Source: Candidatus Latescibacterota bacterium
Lineage (GTDB): Bacteria > Latescibacterota > UBA2968 > GCA-2709665
DNA: 64,000 nt
Direction: 5' to 3'
NCBI GenBank assembly: GCA_965205485.1
Contig: OZ242180.1
Span: 4,576,001-4,640,000 of the forward strand
Made by a program: the position numbers. Each line of letters starts with the position of its first letter. The stretch's first letter is position 1. This document shows positions 26,701-32,700 of the stretch, piece after piece.

Positions 26701-29700
26701 AGAACCGGATCAAACCCTTTCTCAGGGCGCGAAAGGTCAACTTCCCCATCGCCCTGGACTCTGACAGTGCGGTGATGCGGCGAATGCAGGTGAACGTCCT
26801 GCCGACGACTCTTCTGATCACGACTGACGGGAAGATCGCGCTCCGGCAGGTCGGATACAATTCGAAAAACGCCGATGCGTTGCTGACTGCCGTAGCGGCG
26901 CTTTTTCCCGAATCCGGCCACGACGACGAGGCGAACGCGGATGCGAGCGCGGACCAATAGCCTGACAATGCTCCTTCTGCTGGCGGCGTCGACACCGGCC
27001 GGCGCGCAGGTGACTGCATCCAGCCTGACCGAAATACAACGGGGACGCGTTCCGGGCTCGGACTCGCTGTCGGTTTCGTCACTCTATGAGCAACTCGACG
27101 TCGATTACACGCGGCACGGTCTGCAGGCCGGACTGAGGGCGGAGATCTTCAATGCATGGCGCGACCCCGCTCCCGGCTCTCCGCTTTCTCAGGTTGAATA
27201 CCAGGTCGTGCACGTGTCCCAGAAACACGTGCGCTGGACGCACGGACCCGTCGAGCTGGTTGGGGGCAACTACTACGCCATCCTGGGTCGCGGCATCACG
27301 CTCAGGGCCTTCGACCTGCCGGGAGTCATTCTGGAGAGCGGGCAATACCGGCGCCGCTATTCGCCTTCCCGGGACCTCGAGGGCGGCATGGCCACGTGGG
27401 CGGGGCCTCGGGCCGAGGCCAGAGCCCTGATCGGCCGCCCCGTACTAAGTGACATTCCCCCCGCGGTGCGGGTGGGCAATCCGCTTCGGGACCTGCCGCG
27501 GCGCGACAACTGGCTTCTTGGAGGGGAGGTTTCGCTGCGGCCAGCCAACCGGATCAAGACCGGCGTCACGGCCGTCAGCCATCACGCCTCCAGGTTTGAC
27601 TCCACGCGCACATGGTCGGGATATCTGGAACTCGACGTCACGCCTGCAATTGAAGCGTCAGGCCTTCAGGACGGGTATGCGACCGTCTACGCGGAGTACG
27701 CCGGTCTGAATGACGTGCACGTGGACGGCAGCGCGCTGTATCTTTCGGCCAATGCCGGCGTTTCCAACCTGGGATTGAGCCTGGAATACAAGGACTATGA
27801 GAATTTCGCCTTCAGTTTCAACGATCCCCCGTCCCTGGTTCGCGAACATGCGGCCGTCCTGCTCAACCGGTCCACCCATGCCCTGATTGCCGACGCGGAA
27901 ACGGGTTATCAGGTGGAAGCCACGTATTCGGTTTTCGGGCTGGGCACGCTGACGGCAAACATCAGCAAGGGGGAGAACGAACTCGCGCCCGGCTTTTCAA
28001 CGACCTTCAATGAGCGGTATCTGGGCGTGGACGTCGAACTGCCTCCGCTGGGCGGCGGGCACAGCGTGACGTCTACCGTCTTCTTCGATTGGGGAAAAGA
28101 CGAACTGAAGGGTATCGGAAAGCACCGGATCGGCGGTGTGGGGGCCGAATCCAATACACCCGGAGGGTCTGTCCTGGGTCTCGACCTGCAGGTCCGGCGC
28201 GCGGCCAGGCATCCCCGGAACGAGCCTGCGTTTTGGGATGTCTTTGCCCAGTTTTCCTATCAGCATCCCTCGGGCGTGGGCGGCGCCCTCATTCTTGATC
28301 GCACAAACGACCCGTTTGAAGTGGACGATGTCACAACGCGCGACCGGACCGAGACCGGCACGCGCACCTGGCTGGCAGTCAATCTCAACGTCGCCTTTCT
28401 CGAACGATACGAGGCCTTCGTATTCGCCGGCCGCAGGCGAGGCGGCGCCGCGTGTACATCGGGGACATGCTATCTGGTATTGCCGTTCAGTGGCCTTGAA
28501 ATGCGCCTAAAGACCTATTTCTGACGCGGACCACACACTTTTTCCTAGGAGGATTGCGATGATTCGATTCGTTGCATGCGTCGTGTTCCTGCTGGTCCCG
28601 GGATTCTTTCCGCCGGGTCCGGCGGAAGCCCAGAGTGTCGGTGACGCGGTACCGACGTTCTCGCTTACCGGGCTGGACGGAAAAACCTACGCCTCGGCGT
28701 CTTACAAGGGAAGTGTTCTGGCTCTCTATTACCTGGGCCATAACTGACCCACCTGCCGGGCGGCGGGTCCGTCCATAGAACAGCAGATCTGGAAGGCGTT
28801 CCAGGATGACGGCCTGGCGGTCCTGGGACTTGACATCTACAATGGCACTCAGGCTCAACTCAGGGGTTTTCAGACAGCGTCCACGATCACGTTTCCCCTG
28901 CTGCTGCAGGCAGGCAGTATCAGGGGATCTCACGGAACCCACACGTTGCTGGTCGCGGACCGGGAAGGGATCGTCCGTCACATCGGGCGCGGCGCTTCGG
29001 GTCTCAGCGCCGCGGCGGCGAACATCCGGGAACTGCTGACGCTCCCGCCGCCGACAATCAGACTTCCCAGTACGTCGCTCGACTTCGGCGAGGACGTTCC
29101 TGCCGGTGAAGCCAGGACCGTTACCCTCGTCGTAAGGAACACCGGTGGCAAAGACCTCAGCATTACGAATCTTGAGTCCGACCTCGAGGGCGTCACATTC
29201 AGCCTGACGGCACTCACGGTCGCGCCTGGCGAACGTGCAACCGTCGATATCACCTTCACGCCCGCGGAGGGAGGACCTTTCTCCGGCACGATTACCATTT
29301 CCAGCGATGACCCTGAAAACGGAAGTGTCACGGTCTCGATTTCCGGAACGGCGGTCGTCGTCCCCGTCAATCCCAAGGCCGACTTCGACAATGACGGCGA
29401 AATCGGATTCAGTGACTTCGTCGCCTTCGCCCAGGCCTTCAGTACCGACGACCCGACCTTCGACCTGAACGGAAACGGCCTGGTCGACTTCCCGGACTTT
29501 CTGGAATTCGCAAGGAACTTCGGCAAACGGGTGCCATGAGTTGGCGCTGGGCGTGTACACCCGCAGGATTGTCCCTTCCCGAAGGAGGTATCACATGTAC
29601 CGACTCCTGGTTGCCGCGGTGATCATGGGCCTCTTCGCGCCTGCGTCCGCATGGGCTCAGAAGGTCGGAGATGCAGTACCGTCCTTCTCGCTCACGGGGC

Positions 29701-32700
29701 TGGATGACAAGACCTACATGCCCGCGAATTATGCGGGTAACGTCTTCGTGCTCTACTACCTGGGCCATAACTGAGACCTGTGCAGACAGACGGGTCCGTC
29801 TATAGAAAGACAAATCTGGAAGGCGTTCCAGGATGACGGCCTGACGGTGCTGGGACTCGACGTCTATAATGGCAGCAAATCGCAATTGCAAGCCTTTCAA
29901 AGAGTCACCGGGGTCACGTTCCCGCTTCTCCTGCGAGCCGGCCGCGCATTTCCGAGAACGCTCGGCGTTGACCATACGCTTGTCGTGGACCGCAAGGGCA
30001 CGATCCGTCACATCGGGATACGCAAACCGGCGTCAATCACCGCAACGGCCGCGCGTATCCGGGAACTGCTGAGCGTCCCGCCGCCGGCGATCAAACTTTC
30101 GGGTAGGTCACTCAACTTTGGCGAGGACGTGCCAGCCGGACTATCCAGAACGCTCACCCTGGTCGTTCACAATACCGGCGGTGTATCGCTTACGATCAGC
30201 GACATTCAATCCGATCTCGAGGAAATCTACATCAACACCACTGAGGTATCGGTCGCGGCAGGAGACAGCGCGAGGGTGGCGATCACATTCACGCCGGCCG
30301 AAACCGGTCCCTTCTCCGGCACGATTACGATTACCAGCGACGATCCGGAAAACAGAAGCATCACGGTCGCTGTTTCCGGAGCGGTCATCGTTGTCCCCGT
30401 CAATCCCCGGGCCGACTTCGACCATGACGGCAAAATCGGCTTCAGCGACTTCGTCGCCTTCGCACAGGCTTTCAACACCCGCAATGGCACCTTCGACCTG
30501 GATGGAAACGGCCTGGTTGAATTCCCGGACTTCCTGGAATTCGCCAGAAACTTCGGCAAGAGCGTGCCATGAGTTCGCGCCGGGTCAATGGACGCAGAAA
30601 AAACACGCTGTTTCCGGCGTGTTTTTTCGTTTCCAGCCTGGACGCCGCGCATGGACTGTTTGATGTTCTGACCGACTATATGATTGATAAACAGACGTTT
30701 ATTTCGATCAGACCCAGCGGTTTTTCAGAAACCCGGCAGAGTTCTCAGGCGTCTAAGAGTCATCCGGATTTCCGGACGTGGTCCGGTATGAAGGTCGTCA
30801 CCCGCAATGTGGCATCGATCGCTGCGCGGTAAACCCATTGAATCGAGTTGTGCGTACGCCCGCGTGCGGGTTTTCATTGACTGAAGACCGATAGTGGCCG
30901 CTGCCGGCCGCGCCCCTGTCAGATTGAAACAGGACAATCCAGATGGTCACGGCAAAAACGGATAATCAACTCATGAAACCGGGTCACGGCACCAGTGCCG
31001 CTACAAACGACCTGTTGCCGACCGTGAAATCGTATATTGACAGGCACGGCATGATCCGGCCGGGCGATGGGGTTGTCGTTGGCGTATCGGGAGGGCCGGA
31101 CTCGGTATCGCTGCTGGATCTGCTGTCACGGCTTCGCAAATCTCTCGACCTCCGGCTCTTCGTTGCCCACCTCAACCATCAACTCAGGGGTCTGGCTTCG
31201 GATGAGGACCAGCATTTCGTTTCGGATCTCGCCGAAGCGATGGATCTTCCGTGCTTTTCCGAAAAGGCGGTCCTGCCCGACGAGGGCTCTCCTGAGGAAG
31301 CGGCTCGAGACGCCCGTCTCGCTTTCTTCAGTCGCGTCCTGCGAAACACCGGCGCTTCCCGCATCGCGTTGGGTCATACCCGCAGCGATCAGGCCGAAAC
31401 TGTCCTGATGCGACTGATTCGCGGCGCCGGTACGACCGGGCTCGGCGGGATCAGACCCATCCGCGACGGGATCTGGATCCGCCCGCTCCTCGGGGTTTCC
31501 CGGCAGCAGATACAGGCATATGTCGAACACCGGAACCTGCGCGTGCGTCACGACAATACCAACACTGAAACCCGCTTCCTCCGGAACCGGATCAGGCATC
31601 TTCTTCTGCCGGAGATCGCGTCGGATTACAACCCCTCGATCGAGGCGGTCCTTGCAAGGTCCGCGGAGATTATCCAGAGTGAAGATCAACTGCTCGGCCG
31701 GCAGGCTGAATCGGCGTACCGGAAAGCCCTGCGTTACGAGGGAAAACGAAAAATAATCCTTGATGAAAACGCCGTTTTCGGTTATCATATAGCACTTCAG
31801 CGCAGGTTGTTCAGAACGGCGCTTTTCCGACTTCGAGGTTGCTTGCGGGACCTCGATGAGAAGAGCGTCGGCCGCATGGAGAGCCTGCGGCAGACACCCG
31901 CCGGTTCGGTTCAGGTGTCTGCCGATATTTCCGTTCATCTTTCCAGCCCGTGGCTGATCCTGAGTCGGCCGACGCCGGCGTTCGAGACCGAAGTGGCCGT
32001 TCCGGGCGTCACCGAAATCCCGGAAATCGGCGCATCTGTCGAGGCGAAGATCAGTCCGGCCGGCGATGTGCAAAAGGCAGACCTGTCGTCCGATCCGTTT
32101 CGCGCCTGTTTCGATCGGGAAGCGGTCGCCGGTCGCCTGACACTCAGAAACCGGCGCCGTGCGGATCGTTTCGCGCCGTTCGGCATGGCTGGAACACAAA
32201 AAGTAAGCGACCTGTTGATCAACCTCAAGATCCCCAGACCGCTGCGTGATGAAGTCCCGCTGCTACTGGGAGGAAAGGCCATCCTCTGGGTGGCCGGCTT
32301 GCGTACGGCCCGGTCCACGGCCGTTACGCATCGGGCGAGAACGGTGCTGGAAGTCACCCTCAGGGGTGGCTGGGGAGAGATTCTCACCTCCTCGGGAGCA
32401 TAATCGTCAAGGCGGTTCTTATGGCAGAACATAAAGAACAGGAAGAAACTCCTGACGCCGGGCAAGAGGAGCAACGACCGCCCGTTCCGGAGTTGAAGCC
32501 TGAGTCCGACGGAGACCGCGATGCACCTGAGCCGCCCAGGAACCGGCCACGGCCGCGGCATAACCGCGAGCCCGGGTCGACTCCCGAAAACGACGGCAGT
32601 GAATGGCGGCGGCGATCAAAGACTCTTGCATTCTGGGTCTTCTTTGTACTGGTCGCGCTCTTCGCGACACGATTCTTCGGAAGCAGTACCGGCTCCGGTG

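Follow-up and report, generated by a model that had tools for sequence, protein, structure and literature searches.

Two probable redoxin selenoproteins with dockerin-like tails beside a cysteine-pair outer-membrane barrel in Candidatus Latescibacterota

The locus

The window analysed here is a 64,000-nucleotide stretch of a Candidatus Latescibacterota genome. Within it, genes for a TlpA/ResA-like reductase and a DUF6029 barrel precede two paralogous redoxin genes, termed A and B, whose features are as follows (positions count along the window):

26421..26960, +, TlpA/ResA-like reductase: signal peptide, WATYCKPC, cis-Pro; Pfam AhpC-TSA, 87.9 bits
26941..28524, +, DUF6029 outer-membrane beta-barrel; PF19494, 56.8 bits
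28559..29539, +, gene A: signal peptide, UxxC redoxin, Ig and dockerin-like tail; 326 aa
28559..28630, +, signal-peptide-like N terminus of A, junction AEA-Q, by eye from sequence
28745..28747, +, predicted selenocysteine (Sec) codon U63 of A: TGA at the first Cys of CxxC, YYLGHN-U-PTCR
28758..28774, +, SECIS-like hairpin of A: -9.5 kcal/mol, G-containing loop 16 nt past the UGA
29051..29347, +, Ig-like spacer of A: HYDIN/DUF1573/ASH; choice-of-anchor D (choice_anch_D, 52 bits, cut-off 45)
29381..29536, +, dockerin-like twin Ca-loop tail of A: loops DxDxDGxIxFxD
29595..30572, +, gene B: paralog of A with identical architecture; 325 aa
29772..29774, +, predicted Sec codon U60 of B: TGA, YYLGHN-U-DLCR
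29788..29801, +, SECIS-like hairpin of B: GGUC loop; weak, -5.3 kcal/mol
30084..30380, +, Ig-like spacer of B, from Pfam/NCBIfam
30414..30569, +, dockerin-like twin Ca-loop tail of B, from Pfam, NCBIfam and loop sequence

Read-through translation yields frames of 326 and 325 codons with a single internal TGA each (codon 63 in A, codon 60 in B), confirming the first-pass annotation of two tandem paralogs miscalled as four genes; the halves, of 62, 197, 59 and 241 aa, stand as separate proteins in a public collection. The paralogs have 208 of 326 residues in common, a purine-rich ribosome-binding-like stretch lies at the start of each, and Pfam places an AhpC-TSA/Redoxin domain first, a HYDIN/DUF1573/ASH Ig domain next and two EF-hand-type loops last in both, an order that supports the redoxin-Ig-dockerin-like architecture originally proposed. 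Export past the inner membrane, also proposed, is supported by a hydrophobic stretch that precedes the domain in 72 of 80 homologs under a simple heuristic. Of 14 further genomes in the genus, 3 have a second redoxin copy as well. Rfam returned rRNA and tRNA only across the window, a promoter and terminator scan at the locus gave nothing decisive, and no RNA runs were listed as holding A or B.

Selenocysteine at the UxxC motif

Judged from sequence, A and B are almost certainly true selenoproteins whose UGA is read as Sec. Across 83 homologs, a single alignment column carries TGA in 77 and a Cys codon in 6, as expected from the initial assignment of Sec to UxxC; many CxxC relatives of the redoxin domain were found, and intact CxxC forms in families f1-f3 lend the Sec reading further support. 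The domain was matched in 112 of 168 genomes of the phylum, and among the 150 matches listed of 183, counted by hand, 142 carry exactly one TGA, which excludes a chance in-frame TGA, while 6 carry none, one has a TAA and one has a TGA plus a TAG. The original statement that all matches covering the N-terminal domain have one TGA thus fails in this larger sample. No other letter is listed at either TGA in contigs of two runs from one study, which possibly represent the source sample and hence are not independent. The genome encodes selA, selB and selD above cut-off, plus tRNA-Sec (selC), and selA is present in both TGA-bearing genomes tested from outside the phylum.

Constraint on the nucleotides downstream of the TGA is pronounced. 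In non-redundant Sec genes, G occupies the synonymous position of codon +5 in 42/43, of +6 in 32/35 and of +8 in 38/43, in contrast to 2/38 at +5 in Cys genes. A SECIS-like hairpin follows in 49/53 Sec genes versus 3/42 Cys genes and 94/3975 other codons, under a rule set post hoc, once the sequences had been seen, and against Cys controls of mostly lower GC (2 of 7 high-GC Cys genes pass). An earlier, looser test failed to distinguish the two classes (66/77 Sec and 5/6 Cys genes passed, and B failed), RNAalifold returned no consensus structure for 46 Sec windows, and no fixed pairing register exceeded 0.62 across Sec windows because the loop position shifts between lineages. Bacterial SECIS criteria, as excerpted from PMC13188914, comprise a G in the first two loop positions, a distance of 16-37 nt from the UGA and a stability of at most -7.5 kcal/mol. 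The hairpin of A, at -9.5 kcal/mol, agrees on all counts; that of B has the loop and spacing, but reaches -5.3, and its GGUC loop is also that of the same genome's selD hairpin (-10.7).

The redoxin domain

Pfam scores A and B at 45.3 and 49.9 bits for AhpC-TSA (cut-off 26) and at 30.7 and 38.8 bits for Redoxin (cut-off 26.6); with these domains above cut-off and a UxxC motif, both proteins fit the UxxC redoxin/Prx-like class (PF00578, PF08534), and UxxC redoxin selenoproteins are an already catalogued class. Their first designation as thiol-disulfide oxidoreductases is weakened in the TlpA/ResA sense. A cis-Pro before the penultimate strand is a feature of TlpA/ResA reductases, and Pro occupies this column in none of 84 Sec and none of 45 Cys forms, versus 71/82 neighbouring TlpAs. 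The NCBIfam ResA model gives 38.2 and 40.3 bits for A and B (cut-off 170). In the Cys forms the column holds Asp in 41/45, with Arg next in 32, a pairing reminiscent of peroxiredoxins and deiodinases. Five distant homologs have AxxC, keeping the second Cys alone. Among solved proteins with a name, the family profile comes closest to the ResA/TlpA/CcmG (ResA-type) proteins; a single-sequence AF2 model of A was poor (pLDDT 49.6) and was left unused.

Dockerin-like tails and candidate sockets

A dockerin has a pair of loop-helix repeats that bind Ca, with Asp at positions 1 and 12, and the tails of A and B show both repeats with these residues. This much of the proposed dockerin-like Ca-binding tail stands, but curated dockerin models all remain below cut-off: Dockerin_1 (PF00404) scores 17.9 bits on the tail of A (cut-off 22.9) and dockerin_GC (NF041540) 25.7 and 23.7 bits on A and B (cut-off 29). 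PF00404 matches 33/42 tails at E <=0.01, and a PDB search with the tail ranks calmodulins above a dockerin. The module occurs in 94 frames of the genome, in C-terminal or internal positions or following the signal peptide. We accordingly rejected both a tail specific to A and B and a strictly C-terminal sorting signal (54/94 copies lie <=15 residues from the stop).

Homologs vary widely distal to the redoxin domain, with 0-14 Ig repeats and, among 83 of them, 54 dockerin-like tails, 19 T9SS-like tails and 10 with another tail or none; Por_Secre_tail is found on many Cys relatives. This swap is a natural experiment, and it hints that dockerin-like modules replace T9SS sorting tails. A and B have no C-terminal sorting domain (T9SS-type tail), so display would need a partner. 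Surface display of A and B is plausible, and cohesin-like proteins with a T9SS-type tail are candidate display partners that could act as sockets. The genome encodes five such stand-alone proteins and two dockerin-cohesin-tail fusions, mostly single-cohesin and about 270-370 codons long, and small proteins of this kind are encoded across the source organism's order. A profile of the socket domain finds only cohesin-type chains in the PDB (9/9 matches), but at E 0.007-0.34, and the stand-alone copies lie below the Pfam cut-off. When the tail of A and the cohesin-like domain were modelled as a complex, the outcome (score 0.06, mark 0.32) spoke neither for nor against binding. Among T9SS components, SprA is above cut-off in the genome and a PorU-like C25 protease below (225, cut-off 420). 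We know of no shown case of cargo crossing the T9SS on a cohesin adaptor.

The socket domain is present in 21/21 f1 and 31/31 f2 genomes, where the redoxins are dockerin-tailed, and is found weakly in f4 genomes, where they are T9SS-tailed; this split is one lineage contrast that divergence could explain.

A TlpA–DUF6029 barrel–redoxin module

Genes A and B end a conserved module composed of a TlpA, a DUF6029 barrel with a Cys pair and an exported redoxin; neither this module nor the swapping of tails figured in the first-pass annotation. The AF2 model of the barrel (pLDDT 90) has predicted fold matches among outer-membrane barrels, e.g. ushers, TonB-dependent receptors and porins, and its Cys pair C505/C510 (~28453-28470), located in the hairpin before the last strand, is invariant in 44 sequences. 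Within <=6 kb of DUF6029 genes, a TlpA occurs at 77/78 loci and a family redoxin at 52/78; the most distant loci (Balneolaceae, Rhodothermia, Marinimicrobia, Eisenbacteria, Calditrichaceae) carry the redoxin in 33/36. Linkage of redoxin and barrel is not obligatory, since 23/42 close DUF6029 loci lack a family redoxin within 6 kb and 31/57 redoxin-centred loci lack a nearby barrel. In family f4, the three genes remain adjacent despite inversions, and in another phylum the redoxin slot is taken at 17/20 loci by either a family redoxin or an Omp28-like protein with CxxC. Balneolaceae loci also have short, tail-less redoxin copies, and Sec forms occur at Eisenbacteria and Calditrichaceae loci as well. 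The TlpA is a proposed periplasmic electron donor, and DsbD is encoded in the genome.

Proposed mechanism and alternatives

We propose that A and B may be Sec reductases that are docked at the cell surface and recharged from across the outer membrane, a reading to which we assign slightly less than an even chance. UGA, aided by a hairpin 15-19 nt downstream, would almost surely be read as Sec to yield UxxC thioredoxin-fold enzymes, and with similar confidence the signal peptide would carry these past the inner membrane. On balance, the Ca-binding dockerin-like tail would then plug into a small cohesin-like protein ending in a T9SS-type tail; such carriers would bring the enzyme to the far side of the outer membrane or keep it there, substituting for the T9SS-type tail that relatives bear on their own chain, with the Ig repeats as a spacer. 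More tentatively, DsbD might hand electrons to TlpA, which would pass them through the Cys pair of the DUF6029 barrel to the Sec redoxin. Substrates would probably be small oxidants (peroxides, halogen oxidants, small disulfides) or oxidised surface thiols, a standard protein-disulfide reductase role being less likely because the enzyme has no cis-Pro. In a bolder and doubtful extension, A and B might be the selenium end of an undescribed outer-membrane thiol relay, brought to the surface by a T9SS signal divided between two partners (~90 cargo proteins that bear the dockerin-like plug and a few carriers that combine a cohesin with a sorting tail), with Sec acquired twice as two unrelated thioredoxin-fold families each took it up in the same slot.

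The selenoproteins could instead be kept in the periplasm as peroxiredoxin- or GPx-like scavengers recharged directly by TlpA or DsbD, with a tail that binds calcium or a periplasmic partner and does nothing more. We consider this unlikely: a signal peptide without a T9SS-type tail, the Asp and Arg that stand at and after the cis-Pro column, and the short copies in Balneolaceae would all fit, but the same domain bears a T9SS-type tail in relatives, an Ig stalk of considerable and variable length (as many as 14 repeats) suits display better, and nothing in this reading accounts for the association with an outer-membrane barrel whose Cys pair is invariant.

Also distinctly unlikely is a surface location with no electron flow across the barrel, the Cys pair being structural or the module binding or importing a ligand such as a thiol-reactive metal or small molecule held by UxxC. 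Where the cis-Pro is lost, a CxxC can become available to bind metal, and this counts in favour, as do the likeness to transport barrels and the five AxxC homologs. HBP35, in the excerpts of PMC2907840, binds hemin besides its thioredoxin function, and DUF6029 is suggested to be a polysaccharide porin in those of PMC9603273; however, no polysaccharide-export genes were noticed beside the barrel in the loci read. Prokaryotic Sec, according to PMC13188914, mostly marks redox catalysis. A dedicated reductase, moreover, adjoins the barrel at nearly every locus.

Deiodinase-like dehalogenation of halogenated compounds outside the cell is very improbable, as Sec at the first motif position and weak deiodinase-model matches in some Cys relatives are outweighed by the lack of a Pfam or NCBIfam deiodinase match in A and B, the missing Glu-Ala-His segment that is a deiodinase feature, and the ResA-type proteins as best solved relatives. 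That the TGA is a true stop, leaving A and B as pseudogenes or two genes each, is scarcely credible, because, although public collections hold four proteins and a few homologs are broken (TAA in L076, TAG in L068, frameshifts in L147 and L149), the stop in homologs is always TGA and always at the Cys column, synonymous sites downstream are constrained, the Sec machinery is complete, and the 3' halves as genes of their own would have no signal peptide.

With A and B comes a selenoprotein family of class-wide spread, cut in two by gene callers and now tied to a function-unassigned barrel, every neighbour of which bears a Cys or Sec pair; this tie suggests a route for reducing power past the outer membrane without cytochromes. 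In the literature covered, mostly non-subscription papers without supplements, we found no description of the Sec-redoxin family or its module. In Balneolaceae, among them a named Aliifodinibius genome (L164), the module exists in Cys form, and the relay may be testable in culture.

Comparison with known systems

The catalogued Prx-like thiol:disulfide oxidoreductase (PF00578) and Redoxin family protein (PF08534) have the same Pfam domains and the same UxxC as A and B; in the excerpts of PMC13188914 and PMC2398784, an Ig/dockerin-like fusion or export is not part of their descriptions, and it is by these descriptions that A and B are set apart. Sequence sets supplied with PMC2398784 could include members of the A/B family. 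No NCBIfam selenoprotein model scores A or B above cut-off. The catalogued DUF1573 selenoprotein (OS_HP2, NF041425), which was initially raised as a limit on novelty, does exist and has an Ig-like fold in common, but it is a different protein: its Sec lies, in the source excerpts, in a UGC motif, A and B carry theirs in the redoxin domain instead, and their scores (27 and 21 bits, cut-off 100) led us to reject identity.

Surface display, originally billed as new for a selenoprotein, is less novel in view of the Omp28-related selenoproteins (NF045500, GOS_C), which like A and B have UxxC and a signal peptide, and which follow TlpA and DUF6029 with a T9SS-type tail in one genome above cut-off and one just below. 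They form a different thioredoxin-fold family, and identity was rejected (no model match to A, B or the genome), so that Sec occupies the slot after DUF6029 in two families. An apparent dockerin-like end of one Omp28 selenoprotein (L198), seen by eye, does not match the tail profile (probability 10.9%). Novelty is further reduced by the surface-anchored Cys thioredoxin HBP35 of Porphyromonas gingivalis, which, in the excerpts of PMC2907840, combines a thioredoxin motif and a C-terminal domain, has a modified form on the surface and shows thioredoxin activity in vitro; by that description, it differs from A and B in using Cys, its own sorting domain and hemin binding.

Ca. Stygibacter, a Gram-negative, has dockerin-tailed secreted proteins and a CTD-anchored scaffoldin (cohesin, C-terminal sorting domain) according to the excerpts of PMC8542988, whereas the present genome has mostly single-cohesin sockets, a selenoenzyme cargo and versions of both modules below curated cut-offs. 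Finally, the ResA/TlpA/CcmG reductases are the closest named solved relatives, at a ResA-model score (38-40 bits) far under 170; in contrast to their cis-Pro, WxxWCxxC motif and membrane anchor, A and B have no cis-Pro, an FxGxx[U/C]xxC motif, and a cleaved signal combined with a tail.

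Genes A and B

The tandem paralogs A and B each carry one in-frame TGA and form intact frames when this codon is read as selenocysteine (Sec):

28559-29539, + strand: gene A, 326 aa, U63
29595-30572, + strand: gene B, 325 aa, U60

The products share 208 of 326 residues, and the genes lie 55 nt apart, with 34 nt between A and the gene upstream. Pfam assigns an AhpC-TSA/Redoxin domain, then an Ig domain (HYDIN, DUF1573, ASH) and then two EF-hand-type loops, and each of the four halves of A and B has an entry to itself in the public protein collection. The first-pass annotation, which had described two secreted redoxin-Ig-dockerin selenoproteins miscalled as four genes, had the anatomy right. 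Sequence evidence shows the Sec codon, the export signal and the order of the domains, as well as the linkage of the genes and the swapping of tails. Elsewhere in the window lie an exported protein of 490 aa with a Gly/Arg-rich N-terminal stretch, for which no convincing Pfam match was found, and a complete rRNA operon; frames resembling the 490-aa protein occur near the TlpA-DUF6029 module described below at loci L118 and L127.

15356-20708, - strand: rRNA operon with two spacer tRNAs
23315-24787, + strand: 490-aa exported protein

Probable selenocysteine at the TGA

A and B are very probably genuine selenoproteins, and their catalytic class is already known. The source genome encodes tRNA-Sec, and selA, selB and selD score above cut-offs, selD having one TGA of its own. 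A redoxin-domain query found matches in 112 of 168 phylum genomes; among the 150 matches listed (33 further ones fall outside the list), a hand count gave one TGA in 142, none in six, a TAA in one and a TGA plus a TAG in one. In the 83 distinct family domains from fetched loci that scored at least 80 on our own profile, the first CxxC position is TGA in 77 and a Cys codon in six, in one of which (L076) a nearby TAA breaks the frame. The earlier claim that every match has exactly one TGA therefore fails in this larger sample, but in a direction that favours Sec. Outside the phylum, five genomes were tested, and selA is present in both with the TGA form and in one of three with the Cys form. A tree of 130 domains, built by a quick search on a short alignment, requires five or more switches between Sec and Cys along branches with good support; in families f1 and f2, Cys forms lie nested within Sec ones. 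Sec and Cys paralogs adjoin within single loci (L039, L040 and L041/L107), possibly as a back-up when selenium is low. Near the redoxin pair of L040 (genome G039) lies an extra TlpA-like frame with its TGA within W-U-G-A-C, and at L077 there is a second Sec paralog, which carries a frameshift.

Synonymous positions directly 3' of the UGA are constrained: G occupies this position in codons +5, +6 and +8 in 42/43, 32/35 and 38/43 non-redundant Sec genes, vs 2/38 Cys genes at codon +5. A short SECIS-like hairpin, its loop of the G-G or G-U type and lying 15-19 nt 3' of the UGA, occurs in 49/53 Sec genes, 3/42 Cys genes (a control set of lower GC, in which two of seven high-GC genes pass) and 94/3975 other codons, under a rule set post hoc with the sequences already in view. 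Under a looser test the two groups passed about equally often (66/77 Sec vs 5/6 Cys), and RNAalifold on the Sec genes yielded no consensus structure. Hairpin energy is -9.5 kcal/mol for A and only -5.3 kcal/mol for B, whose loop is GGUC, as after the selD UGA.

Dockerin-like tails and candidate sockets

The tail of A and B is dockerin-like but falls under curated model cut-offs; Dockerin_1 matches 33 of 42 tail copies at E up to 0.01, and a PDB search returned the cellulosomal chain 2y3n_B at 3.4e-6, ranked below calmodulins. The twin Ca-loop module recurs in 94 frames genome-wide, frequently in tandem arrays; 54 copies end within 15 residues of the stop, the remainder being mostly internal or directly after the signal peptide, and a simple heuristic finds a signal-like start in 78 of the 94 frames. 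Of the 83 homologs, 54 carry a dockerin-like tail preceded by 0-14 Ig repeats, 19 a T9SS/FlgD-type tail instead, and 10 another end or none; Por_Secre_tail is found on many Cys relatives in a scan that covered 84 of 150 matches. The Ig repeats between Sec redoxin and tail form a stalk of variable length in L042 (G086; 1695 codons, 14 repeats) and L043 (G076; 1417 codons, 11 repeats). A third ending of the same redoxin family, with a [TS]WGxIK motif, is seen in P0033, P0043, P0110, P0125, P0143, P0068 and P0128 and at L065 and L079.

The source genome encodes SprA and a PorU-like C25 protease. A T9SS-type tail is present on 25 of its frames, just two of which also have a dockerin-like module. 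Two large proteins fuse dockerin-like, cohesin and tail elements in one chain, and five small ones begin with a signal peptide and a conserved N-terminal motif, continue with a cohesin-like domain and end in a T9SS-type tail:

G000:C1:3921029-3921904: L208
G000:C1:2671382-2672197: L212
G000:C1:4348554-4349438: L218
G000:C1:527219-528130: L211
G000:C1:1531427-1532539: L216

Dockerin-like genes adjoin four of the five. All nine PDB matches to the socket-domain profile, at weak E-values, are chains of cohesins or scaffoldins, or else cohesin-like fragments of NagJ. The socket domain is present in 21/21 f1 and 31/31 f2 genomes (all but one of the 52 with E below 1e-27), whereas in f4, whose redoxin itself bears a T9SS-type tail, matches are weak and limited to 33 of 76 genomes; this distribution, a single lineage contrast, fits a putative plug-and-socket substitute for the sorting tail. 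On balance, it is slightly more likely than not that the tail docks A and B on a cohesin carrier, and the proteins would be located at the cell surface. It is rather unlikely that A and B are periplasmic scavengers.

The TlpA-DUF6029 module

Upstream of A lie two genes:

26421-26960: TlpA
26941-28524: DUF6029 protein

The DUF6029 protein is predicted to fold as a large beta-barrel (pLDDT 90) resembling outer-membrane barrels. Its invariant C505 and C510 lie in a hairpin before the last strand, which by usual barrel topology would be an outward loop that might fold into the lumen. In 78 DUF6029 loci, a kept subset of 291 confirmed, TlpA lies within 6 kb in 77 and a family redoxin in 52 (19/42 of the closest and 33/36 of the most distant loci). 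Loci without a redoxin are mostly from f2 genomes, with tilS directly after the barrel and redoxins elsewhere. In the window, Gfo/Idh/MocA (25002-26054) lies upstream and tilS-ftsH (30943-34568) downstream; both also flank TlpA-DUF6029 in several f2 loci whose slot has no redoxin genes.

DUF6029 also occurs in 25 of 101 sampled genomes of another phylum; across 20 fetched loci the Cys pair is kept in 19, and in 17 a CxxC Omp28-like protein or family redoxin, either a lipoprotein or T9SS-tailed, stands beside the barrel. A third phylum contributes two genomes in which an Omp28-related Sec protein, ending in a T9SS-type tail, fills the slot. Omp28-related Sec proteins were found at L197 (G318), L199 (G284) and L198 (G274), two of them in this slot and the third with a dockerin-like end, judged by eye.

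DsbD is present in the source genome, and electrons might pass through the barrel to the redoxin, a step we regard as tentative. Counted from the redoxins, a barrel is nearby in 26 of 57 loci. That A and B are surface proteins lacking a relay, or having a ligand role, is rather unlikely, slightly more so than periplasmic scavenging.

Enzyme type and proposed mechanism

The redoxin domain belongs to the broad FxGxxCxxC subfamily, its best solved relatives being the uncharacterised protein 2ls5, a thioredoxin-family protein and ResA. Standard protein-disulfide exchange needs a cis-Pro. At that column Pro occurs in 0/84 Sec and 0/45 Cys forms vs 71/82 neighbouring TlpAs, the family typically having Asp or Glu; a peroxidase-like or small-molecule role would therefore be at least as likely as protein-disulfide exchange. 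Five distant homologs have AxxC, keeping the second Cys alone; AxxC is found in five of the [TS]WGxIK-ending proteins. Dehalogenase activity is very unlikely, and it is less likely still that A and B are pseudogenes. Our best combined reading, falling just short of probable, is that A and B may be surface-docked Sec reductases recharged across the outer membrane; the fuller proposal of a Sec-tipped relay across that membrane, displayed via a split secretion signal, is rather doubtful.

Comparison with known systems

The literature searched, chiefly the main text of open-access papers, yielded neither the architecture and gene context of A and B nor any account of the family or module. In this literature, DUF6029 appears solely as a possible polysaccharide porin (PMC9603273) and PG_2174 as an entry in one vesicle protein table (PMC4335976). 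Neither A nor B passes any NCBIfam selenoprotein model, and assignments to the DUF1573 (UGC) and Omp28-related (GOS_C) selenoproteins were rejected. For Ca. Stygibacter, a cohesin scaffold that bears a sorting domain is described (PMC8542988). HBP35 is a thioredoxin at the cell surface, likewise equipped with a sorting domain (PMC2907840), and A and B may work in a similar manner. By domain and motif, A and B fall in the UxxC class of PF00578 and PF08534 proteins listed in the selenoprotein catalogue (PMC13188914; PMC9312934; PMC2398784).
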